DNA from: a virus
Lineage: Duplodnaviria > Heunggongvirae > Uroviricota > Caudoviricetes
Virus record (IMG/VR): IMGVR_UViG_2548877009_000017
Location: 1-34,896 of that record
DNA length: 34,896 bases
Reading direction: 5' to 3' (one strand)
The position numbers were made by a program, and so were the translations under genes. Each line of letters begins with the position of its first letter. The first letter of the stretch is position 1. Below are positions 20,647-34,896 of the stretch, piece by piece. The notes beneath the pieces are model-generated. The model searched no databases and had not been told where the DNA came from. It saw only the letters and a list, made by a program, of their open reading frames with translations.

Positions 20647-20722
20647 TGGTGCTGTTTAACGGACTTGAACCGCTACCCATTCGCTTACAAGGCGACCGCT
20701 CTACCATTGGAGCTAAAACAGC
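20647..20722 (-). tRNA. tRNA-Thr (anticodon UGU)
   Basis: 76 nt on minus strand folds into cloverleaf by hand: 7-bp acceptor stem, D-arm GCTC/GAGC, anticodon loop CTTGTAA, T-loop TTCAAGT, 3' ACCA encoded. Confidence 0.65.
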
Positions 20723-20727
20723 ATGTT

Positions 20728-20802
20728 TGGCGGGACAGCGTGGACTCGAACCACGATAAGAAGGTTAACAGCCTTCCGTAATCACCTTTATACGACTGAC
20801 CC
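20728..20802 (-). tRNA. tRNA-Asn (anticodon GUU)
   Basis: 75 nt on minus strand: anticodon stem GAAGG/CCTTC with loop CTGTTAA, T-arm CGTGG-TTCGAGT-CCACG, 3' GCCA encoded; acceptor and D stems each have one mismatch. Confidence 0.6.
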
Positions 20803-27899: not shown

Positions 27900-28616
27900 A
27901 TGGAAAATAAAAAATCACTGACGACAGAACAGCTGGAAGACGCTAAGCGGCTTAAGGCTTTGTATGAGTCAAAAAAGAAAGAATTGGGAATAACCCAATA
28001 CTCAATCGCTGATGAACTGGGTATCACCCAAGGAGCGGTAGGGCATTATCTTAATGGCAGAAACGCGCTAAACGTTGAGGTTGCATCTGGTTTTGCACGA
28101 TTGTTGCAAGTCTCAATTGCTGATTTTAGCCAGTCAATTGCTGCCAAGGTTGCAGAACAGGCAGAAAGCCTTAAGAGCGATGCCAACGTAAGGTATGCAG
28201 GGGAATACAGAGCAGGAAAGAGGTATCCGGTGTTAAGCAGTATCCAGGCTGGCTCGTGGTGTGAAGCATGCGAACCATACACCATTAAAGACATAGATGT
28301 TTGGCTTGAGTCTGACGCGCATATTCAAGGTAATGCGTTCTGGCTTAAAGTGGAAGGTGATTCAATGACGGCACCGGTTGGGTTAAGCATTCCAGAGGGA
28401 ACATTCGTTCTTTTCGATACCGGAAGGGAGGCGATCAACGGCAGCTTGGTCATAGCAAAACTTTCTGACTCTAACGAAGCAACATTCAAGAAGCTGATAA
28501 TCGACGGCGGAAATAAATACCTCAAGGGACTTAACCCTGCATGGCCTCTCGTGCCAATCAATGGAAACTGCAAGATTATAGGCGTTGCAATTGAGACAAA
28601 ACTAAGGCTGGTTTGA
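27900..28616 (+). CDS. cI: CI repressor, lambda cI family (HTH N-domain plus LexA/S24-like autocleavage domain)
   Basis: MENKKSLTTEQLEDAKRLKALYESKKKELGITQ parallels lambda CI; C-terminal GDSM and KKL catalytic motifs; recognition-helix region differs from lambda; no SD upstream and TAGAAT -10 about 7 nt before the ATG suggests a leaderless pRM transcript. Confidence 0.9.
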   Translation: MENKKSLTTEQLEDAKRLKALYESKKKELGITQYSIADELGITQGAVGHYLNGRNALNVEVASGFARLLQVSIADFSQSIAAKVAEQAESLKSDANVRYAGEYRAGKRYPVLSSIQAGSWCEACEPYTIKDIDVWLESDAHIQGNAFWLKVEGDSMTAPVGLSIPEGTFVLFDTGREAINGSLVIAKLSDSNEATFKKLIIDGGNKYLKGLNPAWPLVPINGNCKIIGVAIETKLRLV

Positions 28617-28633: not shown

Positions 28634-29002
28634 ATGGTTGGAACCGCTATAGCAAGCTTTTTTGGGATGTTGGCAATCTCGACAATTTACGGCTTAGCGC
28701 ATGCTTTTATTGCGAAATCTCTATCAGAAAAAATAAGCCAGGCTTGGGCGCATAGATCAGCTCGTTTCATGATTCTAGTGATCATAGCAATACAAGGGAT
28801 ATCTGCATTTATCCTCTATGGTTCAAGCTTATACCTGTTGTATAAAGGCGCGACATTTACGCCTTACACCAGTGATTACGGAACTCTATACGATGGTAGT
28901 GAAGACATCTATATGGCTTGGATCGTTTTTGGTTTATCTATGGCCGTGTCTGTTGTAGCAGACATCATTAAGGTAATTCTCGTCTTAACCTTCGCTGACT
29001 AA
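28634..29002 (+). CDS. Small integral membrane protein of unknown function, co-oriented with and immediately downstream of cI
   Basis: 122-aa ORF from ATG 28634 preceded by AAGGGG; three to four predicted TM segments; occupies the position of lambda rexAB. Confidence 0.55.
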   Translation: MVGTAIASFFGMLAISTIYGLAHAFIAKSLSEKISQAWAHRSARFMILVIIAIQGISAFILYGSSLYLLYKGATFTPYTSDYGTLYDGSEDIYMAWIVFGLSMAVSVVADIIKVILVLTFAD

Positions 29003-29087
29003 CCTATAATCCCGGCAGCAATAGCTATCGGGATCCACTTCACATATCCCGCATAAAAAGCACTGAACAAGCAGACACCGAAAAAAT

Positions 29088-29174
29088 AAATATCCTTTGT
29101 ATTCATTTGCTTATCATTATTTCACCAAAAATAAATACCTTGGGTATTTACACAATAAAATACCTACCGTATTC
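29088..29174. promoter_or_regulatory. Candidate OL operators (three AATAC-N5-GTATT palindromes)
   Basis: AAATATcctttGTATTC (29088-29104), AAATACcttggGTATTT (29133-29149), AAATACctaccGTATTC (29158-29174). Confidence 0.5.
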
Positions 29175-29175
29175 T
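29147..29175 (+). promoter_or_regulatory. Candidate pL promoter
   Basis: TTTACA (-35, 29147-29152) - 17 nt - TATTCT (-10, 29170-29175), overlapping the last two OL palindromes. Confidence 0.45.
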
Positions 29176-29576
29176 TTAGCCATCAGCAGGACGCTGGAAG
29201 CCAAACGGAACAGCTTGGCAGGCTCTTTAACATTGATGGGATTGTCCCGCCGAAATGCGGGAACCAAAGAGTAGTTGGCTTTGGGGTGACGTGAAGTGCA
29301 GCTGCACGACGGCAACCGGAAGATAAGCACCCGGCGCGTCACCGCCAAAGTCAATTCCATAGGCGTTATGCAGCCGCCACCATATTCAAGAAAGCTGCAC
29401 AAGAGGTAGGAGGATTTATGTGAATACTTACATTCAATTGAGAGATTAATTAAATAGAACTGATCGAGCAGAGTCCATAAAGGCTCATAAATGCTCTTCC
29501 ATCCCCGTCTAATTGGCGGGGAAGGAAACCACTTTGTAATAAAAAAAATTCCAAAGTTGTTTCATCGGAGGTCAAC

Positions 29577-29876
29577 ATGACAGTGGTCATTACATATCTG
29601 GCTGACGATAACGCCAGAAATCGCCGCAGAGCACGCAGACAGGCTCAACGTGAACAGGCAATGCAAGAGCAGCGACTGGCGCGAAAAATTGCGCTAAAGC
29701 TCTCTGGTTGCGTCAGAGCAGATAAAGCAGCATCACTCGGAAGCCTTCGCTGCAAGAAGGCAGAAGAAGTCGAGCGTAAACAGAACCGTATTTACTACCG
29801 CAAGCCACGCAGTGAAATGGGTGTGACTTGTGTTGGTCGCCAGAAAATGAAATTAGGCAGCAAACCACTTATTTGA
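29577..29876 (+). CDS. N-like antitermination protein
   Basis: 99 aa with N-terminal arginine-rich motif DNARNRRRARRQAQREQ; first gene downstream of OL/pL; GGAGG before ATG. Confidence 0.55.
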   Translation: MTVVITYLADDNARNRRRARRQAQREQAMQEQRLARKIALKLSGCVRADKAASLGSLRCKKAEEVERKQNRIYYRKPRSEMGVTCVGRQKMKLGSKPLI

Positions 29877-29884
29877 GGTGATAT

Positions 29885-30355
29885 ATGACAAAATCATGGA
29901 GCGTACCTTTTCCTGAATCAGAAACTGAACATGATGGAATGCCTGTTTTCTGGAGATTCCAAGCGACAGTTGAAGAAGATGGAATCAAAATATTCGCACT
30001 TCAATATATAGCTTTTCATCAGACAGAGCATTATGCATGGTTGGTTCCTGCGCATTGGATTGTTAATTTTAAACCAGCACCAAATCAGTGGTTACAGGAA
30101 TGGAAACAAAGGAGAAATAGATATGCAATTAAGAAAGTAGCAAAAAATGCAGAAAGATCTTTTGCATTCCCGACGAAGAAACTTGCCATTGAAAGTTTAT
30201 TGCGCCGGAAGAAATACCATTTGATGAGAATCAAACAAGATTTGGCTGTTGTATCAACTCTTGTTGATGGGATGAAGAATATTGATACATCAACACCAGG
30301 TATTGAATATAACTTTGGACACAACCAAGAAACAGAAAACTGGGTGTTTTATTAG
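29885..30355 (+). CDS. Hypothetical protein, AT-rich moron-like gene
   Basis: 156-aa soluble protein with no recognised motifs; visibly lower GC than neighbours; GAGGTGA before ATG. Confidence 0.55.
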   Translation: MTKSWSVPFPESETEHDGMPVFWRFQATVEEDGIKIFALQYIAFHQTEHYAWLVPAHWIVNFKPAPNQWLQEWKQRRNRYAIKKVAKNAERSFAFPTKKLAIESLLRRKKYHLMRIKQDLAVVSTLVDGMKNIDTSTPGIEYNFGHNQETENWVFY

Positions 30356-30459
30356 TACGAATAAGCACTGTGTATTCATTCCAACGAGTGAATACACGGA
30401 GCAATGTCGCTCGTAACTAAACAGGAGCCGACTTGTTCTGATTATTGGAAATCTTCTTT

Positions 30460-30485
30460 GCCCTCCAGTGTGAGGGCTTTTTTAT
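30460..30485 (+). terminator. Intrinsic terminator downstream of the AT-rich ORF
   Basis: GCCCTC-cagtgt-GAGGGC hairpin followed by TTTTTTAT; a second 9-bp hairpin gtgtattca/tgaatacac lies at 30369-30396. Confidence 0.55.
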
Positions 30486-30549
30486 ATGCATACCAATAAC
30501 GCTTCACTCGAGGCGTTTTCGTTATGCAATCAAACAGAAGGAGCATCCT

Positions 30550-30720
30550 ATGCAACAGTTCGCTATTGCAGGGGCGGCATCGGTTCGCCCTTTCAACCCG
30601 ATTTTATCGGTACAGCATTCACGAAAAAACATTTTAACCGGAGCAGACTTTAAACAACCAAGAATGAAAAGCTTGCTCGAAAAGCTTTGGGATATTTTGA
30701 AACAACAAGGCCGTCCATGA
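30550..30720 (+). CDS. cIII: CIII-like protein
   Basis: 56 aa MQQFAIAGAAS...LLEKLWDILKQQGRP parallels lambda CIII (MQYAIAGW...LIDILNQPG); AAGGAG before ATG. Confidence 0.6.
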   Translation: MQQFAIAGAASVRPFNPILSVQHSRKNILTGADFKQPRMKSLLEKLWDILKQQGRP

Positions 30721-30875
30721 GTTTTACGGATAACTTGTCAGACGAAGAATTCATTCGTCAGATAAAAGAATTAATCGGTAACGAAGGAGATATTCATGTC
30801 ACTTGCAACCACAGTGAAGGAGAGCAAGTTACAGAGACGCATGTACACGCAGAAAGCTCTCTGGTATCGCCATAA
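30717..30875 (+). CDS. Hypothetical small acidic protein
   Basis: 52-aa ORF with ATGA overlap onto cIII-like stop. Confidence 0.4.
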   Translation: MSFTDNLSDEEFIRQIKELIGNEGDIHVTCNHSEGEQVTETHVHAESSLVSP

Positions 30876-30976
30876 TGGTGACCGCGAAGGAATGCGGGTA
30901 TGCCTTAATTTGTCCCGAGTCGAAGTATTAAATCAGCGTTATTTCCTTGGGCCGTGTCCATTCTGAGAGCAATCAT

Positions 30977-31582
30977 ATGAGCAAAGAATTTTACGCAAGA
31001 CTGGCAGCTATTCAGGAGAATCTGAACGCGCCAAAGAATCAGTACAACTCATTCGGCAAATATAAATACAGAAGCTGCGAAGATATTCTTGAAGGCGTTA
31101 AGCCGTTACTGAACGGTCTGTTTTTATCAATCAGCGATGAAGTTGTGTTGATTGGTGATCGGTATTACGTGAAAGCCACGGCAACTATTACCGATGGCGA
31201 AAACAGTCATACGGCAACCGCTCTTGCACGAGAGGAAGAAAGCAAGAAAGGAATGGATTCTGCACAAGTTACGGGAGCTACAAGCTCTTATGCACGCAAG
31301 TATTGCCTCAATGGTTTGTTCGGCATTGATGATGCGAAAGATGCAGATACAGACGAGCATAAACATCAGCAGAACGCAGCAGCAAAGCAATCAAAACCAT
31401 CACTTACACCTGAACAGGTTCTAAAAGCATTCACTGACGCAGCAATGCAGAAAAACACCGTAGAAGAGCTTAAACAGGCGTTCGCCAAAGCGTGGAAGAT
31501 GCTCGAAGGGACGCCGGAGCAGCACAAAGCGCAGGACGTTTACAACATCAGACGAGACGAATTAGAAGGGGCAACTGCTTAA
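30977..31582 (+). CDS. erf: Erf single-strand annealing recombinase
   Basis: MSKEFYARLAAIQENLNAPKNQYNSFGKYKYRSCEDILEGVKPLL... closely parallels P22 Erf. Confidence 0.85.
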   Translation: MSKEFYARLAAIQENLNAPKNQYNSFGKYKYRSCEDILEGVKPLLNGLFLSISDEVVLIGDRYYVKATATITDGENSHTATALAREEESKKGMDSAQVTGATSSYARKYCLNGLFGIDDAKDADTDEHKHQQNAAAKQSKPSLTPEQVLKAFTDAAMQKNTVEELKQAFAKAWKMLEGTPEQHKAQDVYNIRRDELEGATA

Positions 31583-31965
31583 TGGCACATTCGATTACAG
31601 TAAGACTAAACAAACCCGCAAGAGAGTTTCAGGGCGGGGAAAATATCGGATTCAACATCCGTGCTGGCGTTCAGTATTACGATCGCCAGACAAAAAAGAA
31701 AGAATGGACAAACTACAGCGCCGTTGTATTTGCCAAGCCGGGAGCGCAAGCGGATTACTATCGTAGCGTTCTGGTTGAAGGAGGCATTGTAGAAATTACC
31801 GGAGAAAACATCAGGGTTGATGTTTATCAGGGGCAAAATGGTCAATCAATCACTCTTGAATTACTGAATGCAAAGATTGGATTTGCAACTTCAGGAAACA
31901 GCCAACAGCAGCAAAGTAGCAATCATCAAAATAATCCTGAATACGACGATTCCATCCCATTCTGA
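31582..31965 (+). CDS. Single-stranded DNA-binding protein (short SSB)
   Basis: 127 aa with OB-fold-like core and canonical acidic C-terminal tail ...PEYDDSIPF; TAATG overlap with erf stop. Confidence 0.7.
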   Translation: MAHSITVRLNKPAREFQGGENIGFNIRAGVQYYDRQTKKKEWTNYSAVVFAKPGAQADYYRSVLVEGGIVEITGENIRVDVYQGQNGQSITLELLNAKIGFATSGNSQQQQSSNHQNNPEYDDSIPF

Positions 31966-31988
31966 TTTAGAAAAATAAGGATTTAATT

Positions 31989-32285
31989 ATGCCAGCGCCT
32001 TTGTATGGTGCGGATGACCCGCGCCGCTGTTCCGGCAATTCCGTATCGGAGGTGCTGGATAAATTCAGAAAAAACTACGATCGAATAATGTCTCTACCGC
32101 AGGAAACGAAAGAGGAAAAGGAATTTCGCCACTGTATATGGCTTGCAGAGAAAGAAGAACGCGAGCGAATTTACCAGACATCAATCCGACCATTCCGCAA
32201 AGCCACATATACCCACTTCCCTGAATATATCGACCCGCGCCTGCGTAATTACCGCTCACGCTATGGCGCTATCAGTAATGACTGA
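31989..32285 (+). CDS. Hypothetical protein (in the position of P22 abc2)
   Basis: 98-aa ORF with AAGGA before ATG. Confidence 0.45.
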   Translation: MPAPLYGADDPRRCSGNSVSEVLDKFRKNYDRIMSLPQETKEEKEFRHCIWLAEKEERERIYQTSIRPFRKATYTHFPEYIDPRLRNYRSRYGAISND

Positions 32286-32379
32286 GGAATTTACCATGAG
32301 AGGACTTGCTTAAGAGAAAGAGTTTCGGTTCTGTTAATGACAACAAATATCTGAATGCGATGTGGCGGAGTGGGAAGAA

Positions 32380-32778
32380 ATGAAACAAATGTCACTAATT
32401 GAGATGGATGGATTTCTGAAAGGTAAATGCATCCCACGAGATTTAAAGGTTAACGAAACAAACGCTGAATATCTGGTGCGTAAATTTGCTGAAGCGGAGG
32501 CCAAGTGCGCGGCGCTGGCTGCTGAAGTTGAGGCTGTGAAATCAGCACATCAAGATGCTGTAAACACCATCTTGTATACCGCCAATCGAACGGGTGTTTT
32601 ATACACAGAGAAGACAATTCAAATGTCCTGCAAAACCCCGGCCACCGACGCCTTCCTGGCTGAAGTGCGGGCGCAAGGGGTAGAGATGATGCGCGAACAT
32701 CCATCAATCAAACTTTGCTCTTTGACGCACATATGTGACGAGTTAGCCGCCCAGCTTCGCAAAGGAGGCAACCAATGA
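32380..32778 (+). CDS. Hypothetical protein
   Basis: 132 aa from ATG 32380 (track start 32362 is GTG); GGAG upstream. Confidence 0.45.
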   Translation: MKQMSLIEMDGFLKGKCIPRDLKVNETNAEYLVRKFAEAEAKCAALAAEVEAVKSAHQDAVNTILYTANRTGVLYTEKTIQMSCKTPATDAFLAEVRAQGVEMMREHPSIKLCSLTHICDELAAQLRKGGNQ

Positions 32779-33380
32779 GCAAGATTGACTATCAGGCACT
32801 GCGTGAAAAGGCAGAGAAAGCAACGAGTGGTGTGTGGTCGCTCGAATATGGAGAGGAGGGATTTGATGGTGATGATGCACTAATTCATCGCGAGGCTGCT
32901 GGATATATTCCCATTTGCAGAATTGAAGGAGCACATCCAGAAAGCGGTTTCGATGAAGATTTCCAAATGGAACAGCAGGCCAATGCTGAATTCATCGCCG
33001 CAGCCAATCCGGCTACCGTCTTGGCGCTGCTGGATGAGCTGGAAGCAGCAGAGAAGCGAAACGCTGAATTACAAAGCGAGAATGCATACATCCGCAACCG
33101 GTACAAAGAACTGGACCTATTAATCGGGAAAAACATTCTGGTCATGCAGGCTGCCATTATCGAATGGCAGGCAACTGGCGACGCTAAGAGCGGACTGGCA
33201 TGGATTTATAACACACTGTTTGGCCCTGGCGAATTACCGGACGAATCTGAGAAAGATGCTCAGGCCTACTTTAATCGCAAATATGCACCGATTGACGAAA
33301 AGCTTATGGCGCTTCACAAGTGGTTTTGGGAACAAAGTGAAGCCGAGCGCGCCGCTGGCATCAAGGAGGAGTCTGAGTGA
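32775..33380 (+). CDS. Ead/Ea22-like protein
   Basis: N-terminus MSKIDYQALREKAEKATSGVWSLEY typical of Ead/Ea22-like family; coiled-coil centre. Confidence 0.6.
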   Translation: MSKIDYQALREKAEKATSGVWSLEYGEEGFDGDDALIHREAAGYIPICRIEGAHPESGFDEDFQMEQQANAEFIAAANPATVLALLDELEAAEKRNAELQSENAYIRNRYKELDLLIGKNILVMQAAIIEWQATGDAKSGLAWIYNTLFGPGELPDESEKDAQAYFNRKYAPIDEKLMALHKWFWEQSEAERAAGIKEESE

Positions 33381-33871
33381 TGGTCATTTCACCTATAACG
33401 CTGAAAGCGGCGCAGGAATTTATCGCACAGCACCACCGACACAATAAACCACCAGTGGGGCATAAATTCAGCATTGGTCTGAGAAATAATGCCGGAGAAT
33501 TGATAGGTGTGGCGACAGCTGGTCGACCTGTTGCACGACATTTGGACGATGGATTAACGCTTGAAGTAAATCGCACATGTACCACAGGAGAACGCAACGC
33601 TAACAGCGCGCTTTATGGTGCTGTCTGGCGGGCAGCAAAAGCTATGGGTTATCAACGTTGTATTACGTACACCCAGGCAGATGAATCAGGAGCATCTCTT
33701 CGCGCAGCTGGTTTTGTTCGTGTGAAAGAGCTTCCTCCAAGAAAAAGCTGGGCGGAATCAAGCGTCGCCCTGCGGAGTAAACGCGATCCGGTCGGAAACG
33801 GTGGTATTCCTCGTGTGCTCTGGGAAATCAGGAGAATGAGTACCACTGGCATTCGCACCAAAGGAGAGTGA
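33380..33871 (+). CDS. Hypothetical protein
   Basis: 163-aa ORF from ATG 33380 overlapping the preceding stop; no confident family assignment. Confidence 0.45.
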   Translation: MVISPITLKAAQEFIAQHHRHNKPPVGHKFSIGLRNNAGELIGVATAGRPVARHLDDGLTLEVNRTCTTGERNANSALYGAVWRAAKAMGYQRCITYTQADESGASLRAAGFVRVKELPPRKSWAESSVALRSKRDPVGNGGIPRVLWEIRRMSTTGIRTKGE

Positions 33872-33872
33872 T

Positions 33873-34406
33873 ATGAGCGCTATAACCAAAGAACGTATCA
33901 AATTATTCATTAAAAATCCGCTTGATAACGGACTTACTCGTGGCGAACAAATGGAACTGGCACGGATTGCGCTGGCATCGCTGGAAGCAGAGCCTGTAAG
34001 CCAAACTTACAACTTGCCAGAATTAATCGAAGGCATGGAAGTTTCCATTGATGTAAGCACTTGTGATGCTGATTTAGGTAATCGCTATTTCGGCACCGTC
34101 ACCGAGGCGTTAGAACTTGATACAGCCAAGAATGGTTACATCCTCCTGGTTCAGGACGCAGAGCCAAACTTCGATGTAAATGGCAACTCTCCGGTAACTC
34201 CGGATGGTTGGATAAGCTGTAGTGAGCGAATGCCGAAAGGGTATGCTGATGTGTTAGTGACCGACGGAGAGCATGTCGAGGTTAAATGGTGGGATGAATC
34301 TGGGTATTGGAATAGTTGGACGGAACTTAACTCAGATATCTTTGCCGATGAAATAACTCACTGGATGCCGCTACCAGAACCGCCGCAGGAGGTTAACCGT
34401 GGCTAA
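33873..34406 (+). CDS. DUF551-type protein
   Basis: C-terminal ITHWMPLPEPP motif typical of DUF551 domain; 177 aa. Confidence 0.55.
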   Translation: MSAITKERIKLFIKNPLDNGLTRGEQMELARIALASLEAEPVSQTYNLPELIEGMEVSIDVSTCDADLGNRYFGTVTEALELDTAKNGYILLVQDAEPNFDVNGNSPVTPDGWISCSERMPKGYADVLVTDGEHVEVKWWDESGYWNSWTELNSDIFADEITHWMPLPEPPQEVNRG

Positions 34407-34467
34407 CCTGCAACTTGCCGTAAAAGGTGAATAACAATCCTCGCACTCGCGGGGATTTCTTTTATAT

Positions 34468-34493
34468 GAACTCGCTACGGCGAGTTTTGTTTT
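34468..34493 (+). terminator. Intrinsic terminator
   Basis: AACTCGC-tacg-GCGAGTT hairpin followed by TTTGTTTT. Confidence 0.5.
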
Positions 34494-34506
34494 ATGGAGA
34501 TGATAA

Positions 34507-34676
34507 ATGCACTTCCGAGTCACAGGTGAATGGAATGGAGAACCATTCAACAGAGTTATCGAAGCAGAGAACATCAATGACTGCTATGACCACTGGATGA
34601 TATGGGCGCAGATAGCACATGCAGACGTAACCAATATTCGAATTGAAGAACTGAAAGAACACCATGCCGCCTGATG
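34507..34676 (+). CDS. Hypothetical small protein
   Basis: 55-aa ORF (MHFRVTGEWNGEPFNRVIEAENINDCYDHWMIWAQIAHADVTNIRIEELKEHHAA) with GGAG upstream; below ORF-track cutoff. Confidence 0.4.
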
Positions 34677-34691
34677 GCGGTTTCTTTTTGC
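34668..34691 (+). terminator. Intrinsic terminator overlapping the stop of the 55-aa ORF
   Basis: GCCGCC-tgat-GGCGGT hairpin followed by TTCTTTTT. Confidence 0.5.
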
Positions 34692-34704
34692 CTGGAGAAT
34701 TAAG

Positions 34705-34896
34705 ATGACCGATACCAGCCTGATTCCTGAGAAAGAAGTGATGAACAAGCTCGGTGTTTCATCACGTCAGACAATCTGGAACTATACCAAACGGCACGGA
34801 TTTCCGAAGCCAGTCAGAACCCACCCCAAATCATACCTTCGTGAAGCTGTTGATGGGTGGATTCTTAACGGTGGCGTTAATCAGAAATGCTCCTGA
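34705..34896 (+). CDS. xis: Excisionase-like DNA-binding protein (AlpA/Xis HTH family)
   Basis: 63 aa with GVSSRQTIWNYTKRHGFPKPV HTH-like segment; last gene before the window end where an integrase would be expected. Confidence 0.55.
   Translation: MTDTSLIPEKEVMNKLGVSSRQTIWNYTKRHGFPKPVRTHPKSYLREAVDGWILNGGVNQKCS

Follow-up and report, generated by a model that had tools for sequence, protein, structure and literature searches.

A mosaic ea region, probably the distal part of the early-left operon, in a P22-like Escherichia coli prophage, and its XF1762-family GNAT protein

What are the small genes found downstream of erf in the viral record IMGVR_UViG_2548877009_000017, and can they be named? 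The question concerns positions 31582-34704 of the window, which here means the whole stretch of 34,896 nucleotides analysed, and it was raised by a first-pass annotation that described a variable accessory region in which no function could be assigned from sequence. This last claim does not hold, as Abc2, the single-stranded DNA-binding protein (SSB) and a member of the XF1762 family (NCBIfam, PHROG 1384) can all be named. The region is an ordinary mosaic ea region of a known kind, with new members of known families, and we estimate at about three in four the probability that it makes up the part of the early-left (PL) operon lying far from the promoter in a P22-like E. coli prophage, equivalent to the ea region of P22 and the exo-xis region of lambda. 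As a whole it matters little, being textbook lambdoid mosaicism; its one real lead is the XF1762 protein, from a large sister family of Mom that keeps the catalytic Arg and Ser and not the DNA-binding insertion.

The window is a nearly complete P22-like E. coli prophage, with the tailspike, an SLT-domain ejection protein, a DnaB-type helicase and other open reading frames (ORFs) on the - strand. As shown in Table 1, the order on the + strand (erf, SSB, abc2, a DUF2737 remnant, EaE-like, Ea22, XF1762, EaA-like/DUF551, two terminators, orf55, a terminator and an AlpA-type, Xis-like gene) is collinear with the annotated PL operon of P22, erf-abc1-abc2-orf56-eaE-...-eaA-...-xis. Between 31582 and 34704 the ORFs are densely packed, and several junctions are coupled or almost so: the erf stop and the SSB start share one base at 31582, the EaE-like and Ea22 genes overlap by four bases (32775-32778), Ea22 and XF1762 meet in a TGATG at 33378-33382, and the XF1762 stop at 33871 is followed by the DUF551 ATG at 33873. 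Because the only sigma-70-like promoter on the + strand of 29000-34896, at 29147, sits upstream of the N-like gene, the region was placed in the distal part of the early-left operon. Its genes would be silent in the lysogen and, upon induction or infection, would be transcribed from that single promoter, with N-type antitermination allowing read-through of the internal terminator hairpins. No RNA families were found by Rfam in the accessory region. The six ORFs listed by the first-pass annotation were all recovered on the + strand where it had placed them, and its list had overlooked two features, the 132-residue EaE-like ORF and the DUF2737 remnant.

The variability of the region was confirmed by blastn against 14 related phages and prophages, which showed a patchwork of 50-1400-bp segments with sharp joints, where erf-SSB-abc2 forms a long shared block (30922-32312, 96-97% identical in HK633, 720R6, Sf101 and E. 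coli W4) and the other gene bodies are unique. Short linkers of 40-80 bp recur at 32298-32367, 34181-34239, 34354-34397, 34428-34504 and 34627-34694. Parts of the region are present in 582 phage records and in 3699 of the 5426 complete E. coli genomes, and none of these 5426 genomes carries 80% of it in one place; the only match to 30900-34393, at 99.9%, is GenBank OR844588, a 3.8-kb fragment of an E. coli O26 phage. The genes after abc2 (EaE-like, Ea22, EaA-like/DUF551 and orf55) would be exchangeable cassettes joined at short conserved linkers.

The 163-residue product that had been left as an unknown is an XF1762-family member, with 207.3 bits against NCBIfam NF045478 (curated cut-off 50; profile positions 2-130 of 143), and PGAP labels its orthologues with the same name. 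The ORF gives 164 residues from GTG 33377 and 163 from ATG 33380, the latter being the likely start because a Shine-Dalgarno sequence, AAGGAGG, lies at 33363-33369 and in strain 95NR1 the corresponding ATG is the one chosen by PGAP. The protein also falls in PHROG 1384, "Mom-like DNA modification protein" (1.4e-43), in which Mu Mom itself is found (7.8e-84), and its sole Pfam match is Mom (PF25680; E = 3e-5; profile positions 3-124 of 202). When 37 diverse members of the family were compared with Pfam, 27 matched Mom (E <= 0.01), a few of them above the cut-off, and none of the 37 matched any other family, the acetyl-CoA GNAT families included. The mini-Mom label already stands in PHROGs and NCBIfam.

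Mu Mom is a GNAT enzyme; it takes glycine from Gly-tRNA(Gly) and attaches it to the N6 of adenine in double-stranded DNA (PMC13219725). Its residues R111, S124 and R151 are essential, and a helix-turn-helix (HTH)-like insertion (residues 175-209) is indispensable, its deletion abolishing activity (PMC13219725); the catalytic R111 (R101 in earlier work) is kept in Mom homologues and not across GNATs generally (10.1101/861617). Alignment of the XF1762 and Mom profiles with hhalign (E = 6.4e-4, 118 columns) pairs H20 with H58 of Mom, E63-V-N65-R66 with E108-L-N110-R111, and R73-N74-A-N-S77 with R120-N121-S-E-S124, making R66 and S77 the counterparts of the catalytic R111 and S124. In an alignment of 151 sequences, consisting of the window protein and 150 representatives, H20, R66 and S77 are conserved at 97-99% and N74 at 94% (R66 in 150 and S77 in 146 of the 151). 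The link is visible to profile methods only, since pairwise BLASTP of the XF1762 protein against Mu Mom was not significant; searches of Protein Data Bank (PDB) sequences with the protein and with the 37-sequence profile gave no match, Mom included. We conclude that XF1762 is a sister family of Mom, not Mom proper.

Several observations weigh against extending the likeness from family to function. The Pfam score stays under the gathering threshold (24.2 vs 27.1 bits), and the hhalign probability is just 27.7%. Residues R151, Y159 and Y59 of Mom are without clear counterpart: hhalign places a gap and T99/Q100 opposite D149-R151, and a manual alternative alignment, with D102-E103 against D149-E150, leaves S104 opposite R151 and L108 opposite Y159. 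The structure model is a confident GNAT fold, with a mean predicted local distance difference test score (pLDDT) of 89.5, and its matches to RimI and IAA acetyltransferase score about like that to Mom, so the fold alone is non-discriminating. The HTH-like insertion is absent, and about 25 residues of low confidence stand in its place; the stretch 120-145 is short and basic (pLDDT 61-64), with a conserved W125, and the chain ends about 45 residues past the beta-6 strand. Mom is a late gene under tight control, and the XF1762 gene lies in an early operon. Among the neighbourhoods of 48 more distant IMG/VR viral contigs (344 ORFs in 281 clusters) a conserved partner gene was absent, and DNA methylases made up only four of the 127 larger neighbour clusters. 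Experimental work on the family was not found in the literature, where "XF1762" and "PF25680" gave no results.

With both sides taken into account, our best single guess, held at somewhat less than even odds, is that the XF1762 protein modifies a nucleic-acid base, probably in phage DNA, by adding an acyl or aminoacyl group as a protection against restriction. The reaction would take place at the conserved Arg66/Ser77 site, corresponding to R111/S124 of Mom, and the substrate-binding surface of the protein would have to differ from that of Mom because the HTH-like insertion is absent. A narrower proposal, speculative and rather doubtful, is that of a minimal Mom, an insertion-less GNAT of 163 residues that would use aminoacyl-tRNA or another activated acyl donor to hypermodify DNA bases of P22-like and lambdoid phages. 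If this were true, an unrecognised DNA modification would be widespread, with about 3300 clusters at 50% identity. The family counts 4897 clusters at 90% identity and 3310 at 50%, with members in phages of Burkholderia, Mycobacterium, Streptomyces, Synechococcus, Pelagibacter and others, reaching in this way the phages of Proteobacteria, Actinobacteria, cyanobacteria and a marine bacterium, Pelagibacter.

A conventional GNAT, dependent on acetyl-CoA and acetylating a host or phage protein or a small molecule in host takeover or anti-defence, with nucleic acid left untouched, is possible, if unlikely. It would suit the fold matches, those to RimI, IAA acetyltransferase, NatA and phosphinothricin acetyltransferases being about as good as that to Mom, as well as the missing DNA-binding insertion and the position of the gene in an early operon amid host-modulating genes. 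However, the acetyl-CoA-type GNAT families of Pfam are matched by no family member, only Mom, and the position of the CoA-pyrophosphate motif (R/Q-x-x-G-x-G/A) reads R73-N-A-N-S77-A, deviating as Mom does with R120-N-S-E-S124-R. Moreover, family members are fused to DNA methyltransferases or adjoin them. Fusions were found with a C5 DNA methylase, a D12 N6A methyltransferase, a PAPS-reductase domain, DUF6884, and YodL plus LPD28 polyvalent-protein domains (proteins P0206, P0165, P0263, P0241 and P0213, some of which may be gene-calling artefacts). In Burkholderia phage phi1026b the XF1762 gene is directly 5' of a DNA methyltransferase and ParB, and a Mycobacterium prophage has a methyltransferase about 1 kb upstream of it. 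Accessory modules of marine elements have been described in which "MOM-like" proteins stand next to methyltransferases and PAPS-reductase-like proteins (preprint 10.1101/2025.08.03.668216).

Less probable still is that tRNA or aminoacyl-tRNA is the final target, as for the GNAT toxins TacT and AtaT, and not the donor for a DNA modification, the outcome being slower host translation. Mom binds charged tRNA and GNAT toxins acetylate aminoacyl-tRNA (PMC13219725), and a Mom-like catalytic core that has lost the DNA-binding insertion would agree with such a target, but no conserved antitoxin-like partner stands beside the gene, PADLOC and toxin families gave no match, and 144 complete E. coli genomes carry it, annotated intact among the matches listed. 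The PADLOC negative extends to the SSB, Abc2, EaE-like, DUF551 and orf55 proteins, none of which had a match. Two other ideas were given up. A multi-gene modification system was dropped because the neighbourhoods of the 48 loci show no conserved partner, an absence that fits a single-enzyme function like that of Mom; and a link between the prophage tRNA genes and a tRNA-dependent Mom-like enzyme was set aside, these genes (tRNA-Thr and tRNA-Asn) being 13 kb away.

The XF1762 gene travels as a discrete cassette of about 530 bp (33348-33879), which blastn finds at 99% identity between unrelated flanks in Kapi1, E. coli W4, 95NR1 and several IMG/VR contigs; the gene itself is 97.6% identical to Kapi1_007 of Kapi1. 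In Kapi1, the W4 and 95NR1 prophages and others it always occupies the slot between Ea22 and DUF551. The search for related loci used a narrow XF1762 alignment and returned relatives at 67-99% identity only; the gene was present in only 144 of the 5426 complete E. coli genomes, and every match listed is annotated as an intact gene. Of 151 E. coli copies, 20 are plasmid-borne, and the listed carriers NZ_AP024128.1 and NZ_JBSTQM010000004.1 are of about 58 kb, possibly phage-plasmids. It was not until 2026 that the chemistry of Mom, a Gly-tRNA-dependent glycylation of adenine in DNA, was worked out, in a paper that urges the study of "Mom-like GNAT enzymes" (PMC13219725), and the carriage of an XF1762 gene by the culturable E. 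coli phage Kapi1 makes the question open to direct testing.

The call of a short SSB ending in DDSIPF is supported by phrog_44, by an alignment of homologues, and by an AlphaFold2 model searched with Foldseek. The protein has an OB domain, a Q-rich linker of 20 residues and the DDSIPF tip. Among 30 homologues, down to 45% identity, a core of about 100 residues is conserved, followed by a Q/P-rich linker of variable length and, in most of them, by a D-x-IPF-type end. In the model (pLDDT 85) residues 107-121 are disordered (pLDDT below 50), and the 50 PDB matches listed by Foldseek are all SSB or PriB (best 4.5e-5), with modest TM-scores of 0.35-0.47. A point on the other side is that curated models miss it, with no match to Pfam SSB and 19.1 bits against a cut-off of 53.95 for TIGR00621; its orthologues carry the RefSeq label "hypothetical protein". 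By its predicted fold and conserved ends, the 127-residue protein is a divergent short phage SSB. It fills the slot of abc1, and no similarity was found between it and P22 Abc1.

The resemblance that had been noticed between the 98-residue ORF and P22 abc2 was borne out, with 92.9% identity over 98 residues and 206.8 bits against PF11043 (Anti-RecBCD_p2; cut-off 25), covering all of the profile (positions 1-97 of 97). Judged by this identity, the ORF is an orthologue of the characterised Abc2 of P22, from which binding of RecC and modification of RecBCD activity can be presumed. From the literature on P22 and E. coli, a working scheme would be that Erf anneals single strands, the short SSB coats single-stranded DNA while its host-like acidic tip recruits, or competes for, SSB-interacting proteins, and Abc2 binds and converts RecBCD, which then assists phage recombination instead of destroying linear phage DNA.

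The Ea22-like and DUF551 calls were both upheld by Pfam. The N-terminal Ead_Ea22 domain of the former scores 80.8 bits against a PF13935 cut-off of 27, and its residues 90-201 are 97% identical to 933W L0069, that is, to the C-terminal domain of Ea22 of Shiga toxin (Stx) phages. A pro-lysogenic phenotype was reported for Ea22 of lambda and of the Stx phage Phi24B, with a variable C-terminal domain (PMC7093339). The XF1762 protein ends in ...TKGE* at 33857-33875, where AAAGGAGAG serves the following gene as Shine-Dalgarno sequence, and the end of the present Ea22, IKEESE, is encoded over AAGGAGGAG (33360-33382). By analogy, the K/RGE C-terminal motif of Ea22 proteins (PMC7093339) may be a ribosome-binding site read as codons. 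A link of Ea22 to Dpd, raised by the PADLOC "DpdH" model PDLC02890 (residues 90-188, 33042-33377; 5.9e-37), was not accepted, because DpdH/I are described as BrxC-like, the model has only 127 positions and the matched domain is the Stx-phage Ea22 C-terminus; the model probably carries a wrong name or was made from a prophage gene. In the DUF551 protein, the C-terminal domain scores 58.6 bits against the PF04448 cut-off of 22; comparison with P22 EaA gave 81% identity over the N-terminal 42 residues and 39% over the DUF551 domain; it is a short form of EaA. The PDB sequence search gave nothing useful for the EaE-like, Ea22 and DUF551 proteins.

The apparent gap of 94 nucleotides after abc2 (32286-32379) is a dead DUF2737 gene, at the position of orf56 in P22, in which a 77-bp deletion between imperfect direct repeats (ACCATGAGAGGACTTGC / ATCGAGAGAGGAATTGC) shifted the frame. 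GenBank OR844588 should share this deletion, as its match crosses the site in a single piece at 99.9%. The EaE-like ORF that follows had been listed with 138 residues from GTG 32362, and the start was moved to ATG 32380 because this is collinear with the gene start in HK633. Its product is 38% identical to P22 EaE over 69 residues, and its matches fall under Salmonella phage features annotated EaE. It is itself a mosaic: proteins that are unrelated in the rest of their length begin with its first 36 residues (32380-32487) at 74-100% identity, and this stretch has the look of a recombination linker inside the gene; its match in Salmonella phage VSe13 is under a feature annotated as HNH endonuclease. 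That everything downstream of abc2 is decaying prophage cargo without function, as the wrecked DUF2737 gene and the truncated Ea22 and DUF551 pseudogenes flagged by PGAP in sister prophages might suggest, is very improbable, given that the remaining ORFs are intact, follow each other closely (their stop and start codons overlap or adjoin), match PHROG or Pfam profiles over their full length, and are conserved in the culturable phages Kapi1, HK633 and Sf101.

The terminators that had been described as bracketing the 55-residue ORF are real as hairpin and U-run sites; they are three on the + strand, not two. Two of them stand in tandem 5' of orf55, within a segment (34428-34504) that is 98.7% conserved in Kapi1 and an IMG/VR contig, and the hairpin segments around orf55 count among the short linkers that phages differing elsewhere have in common. 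The segment 34627-34690 maps by blastn to positions 7469-7532 of the P22 locus, within which the P22 record annotates the terminator of aI RNA, an antisense RNA, at 7506-7526. The hairpin at the orf55 end (34660-34684) was terminator-like in scans of both strands, the - strand fold being weak (z = -0.9). The orf55 frame is intact in five homologous loci, whose copies are too alike for an informative ratio of nonsynonymous to synonymous substitutions. The AlpA-type gene ends the operon, and its last base is that of the window; its DNA is 97.8% identical to the AlpA-family gene of Sf101, where the integrase adjoins it in convergent orientation.

Table 1. Features of the early-left segment of the prophage, with positions in the window
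Feature	Position	Strand	Support
cI-type repressor	27900-28616	+	
N-like ORF	29577-29876	+	
erf, ssDNA-annealing recombinase	30977-31582	+	PF04404 3.5e-44; 75% identity to P22 Erf
Short phage SSB, 127 aa, HK97 gp40-type	31582-31965	+	phrog_44 "SSB" 3.4e-29; ends ...EYDDSIPF
abc2, anti-RecBCD protein, 98 aa	31989-32285	+	PF11043 4.3e-62; phrog_656
DUF2737 gene remnant, five codons, MRGLA*	32296-32313	+	alignment with HK633 and Sf101; HK633 annotation
EaE-like protein, 132 aa	32380-32778	+	phrog_614 8.8e-53
Ead/Ea22-like protein, 201 aa	32775-33380	+	PF13935 1.8e-22
XF1762-family GNAT, short Mom-like protein, 163 aa	33380-33871	+	
EaA-like DUF551 protein, 177 aa	33873-34406	+	PF04448 1.1e-15
Terminator-like hairpin and U-run	34436-34457	+	-13.1 kcal/mol, z = -5.7
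Terminator-like hairpin and U-run	34468-34487	+	-11.9 kcal/mol, z = -4.2
orf55, small protein, 55 aa	34507-34674	+	phrog_676 5.9e-39, full length
Terminator-like hairpin and U-run	34666-34681	+	z = -2.6; orf55 stop codon in loop
AlpA-type excisionase/regulator, 63 aa	34705-34896	+	phrog_66 2.8e-8; PF05930 0.0032

Other features were seen elsewhere in the window. The segment 1-2991 is GC-poor (0.30-0.39) and holds an Acyl_transf_3 acyltransferase (1-987, + strand), likely an O-antigen-modifying moron, adjoining a tailspike with the P22 head-binding domain (1045-2991, - strand). Adjacent genes for tRNA-Thr (TGT) and tRNA-Asn (GTT) lie at 20647-20802 on the - strand, upstream of the lysis and late genes. 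The segment 29885-30520, which precedes the recombination module, holds a 156-residue ORF matching phrog_1636 (1e-111) and, after it, two more terminator-like hairpins at 30460-30477 and 30498-30517. Apart from the XF1762 lead, the analysis leaves the region better annotated, with a recombination module (Erf, Abc2 and an SSB whose tip is host-like), a dead DUF2737 gene, three conserved terminators, and corrected start codons for two genes.

The proteins of the region were compared with their known relatives. With Mu Mom (PDB 8BV8) the XF1762 protein shares the GNAT fold, PHROG 1384, the E-x-N-R and N-x-x-S motifs and the equivalents of R111, S124 and H58, whereas it is about 80 residues shorter, lacks the HTH-like insertion, has no clear counterpart of R151, Y159 and Y59, scores below the Pfam threshold, and is encoded in an early and not a late operon with no com-like regulator nearby. 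The present Ea22 is like those of lambda and Stx phages in its Ead_Ea22 N-terminal domain followed by a Stx-phage-type C-terminal domain, and differs in ending ...IKEESE, without the K/RGE motif described for Ea22 proteins (PMC7093339). The short SSB resembles the bacterial ones (E. coli SSB, tip DDDIPF) and those of the HK97 gp40 type in its SSB/PriB-type OB fold, low-complexity linker and acidic D-x-IPF tip; in contrast to bacterial SSB it has just 127 residues, a linker of 20 residues, and a sequence too divergent for Pfam SSB and TIGR00621. Abc2 equals that of P22 in length to within one residue and in its position downstream of erf, although the P22 neighbour abc1 is absent here.

Compared with the reference region of P22, erf-abc1-abc2-orf56-eaE-eaF-eaD-eaI-eaA-eaG-eaC-xis, the present prophage has the SSB in place of abc1 and a deleted DUF2737 gene at the position of orf56; EaF, EaI, EaG and EaC are absent, the XF1762 cassette and orf55 are present, and Xis is of the AlpA type. 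On the other hand, the region shares with P22 ea and lambda exo-xis its operon position between the recombination genes and xis, and with P22 ea the families of erf, abc2, eaE-like, Ead/Ea22 and eaA/DUF551 together with the mosaic style with short conserved linkers.

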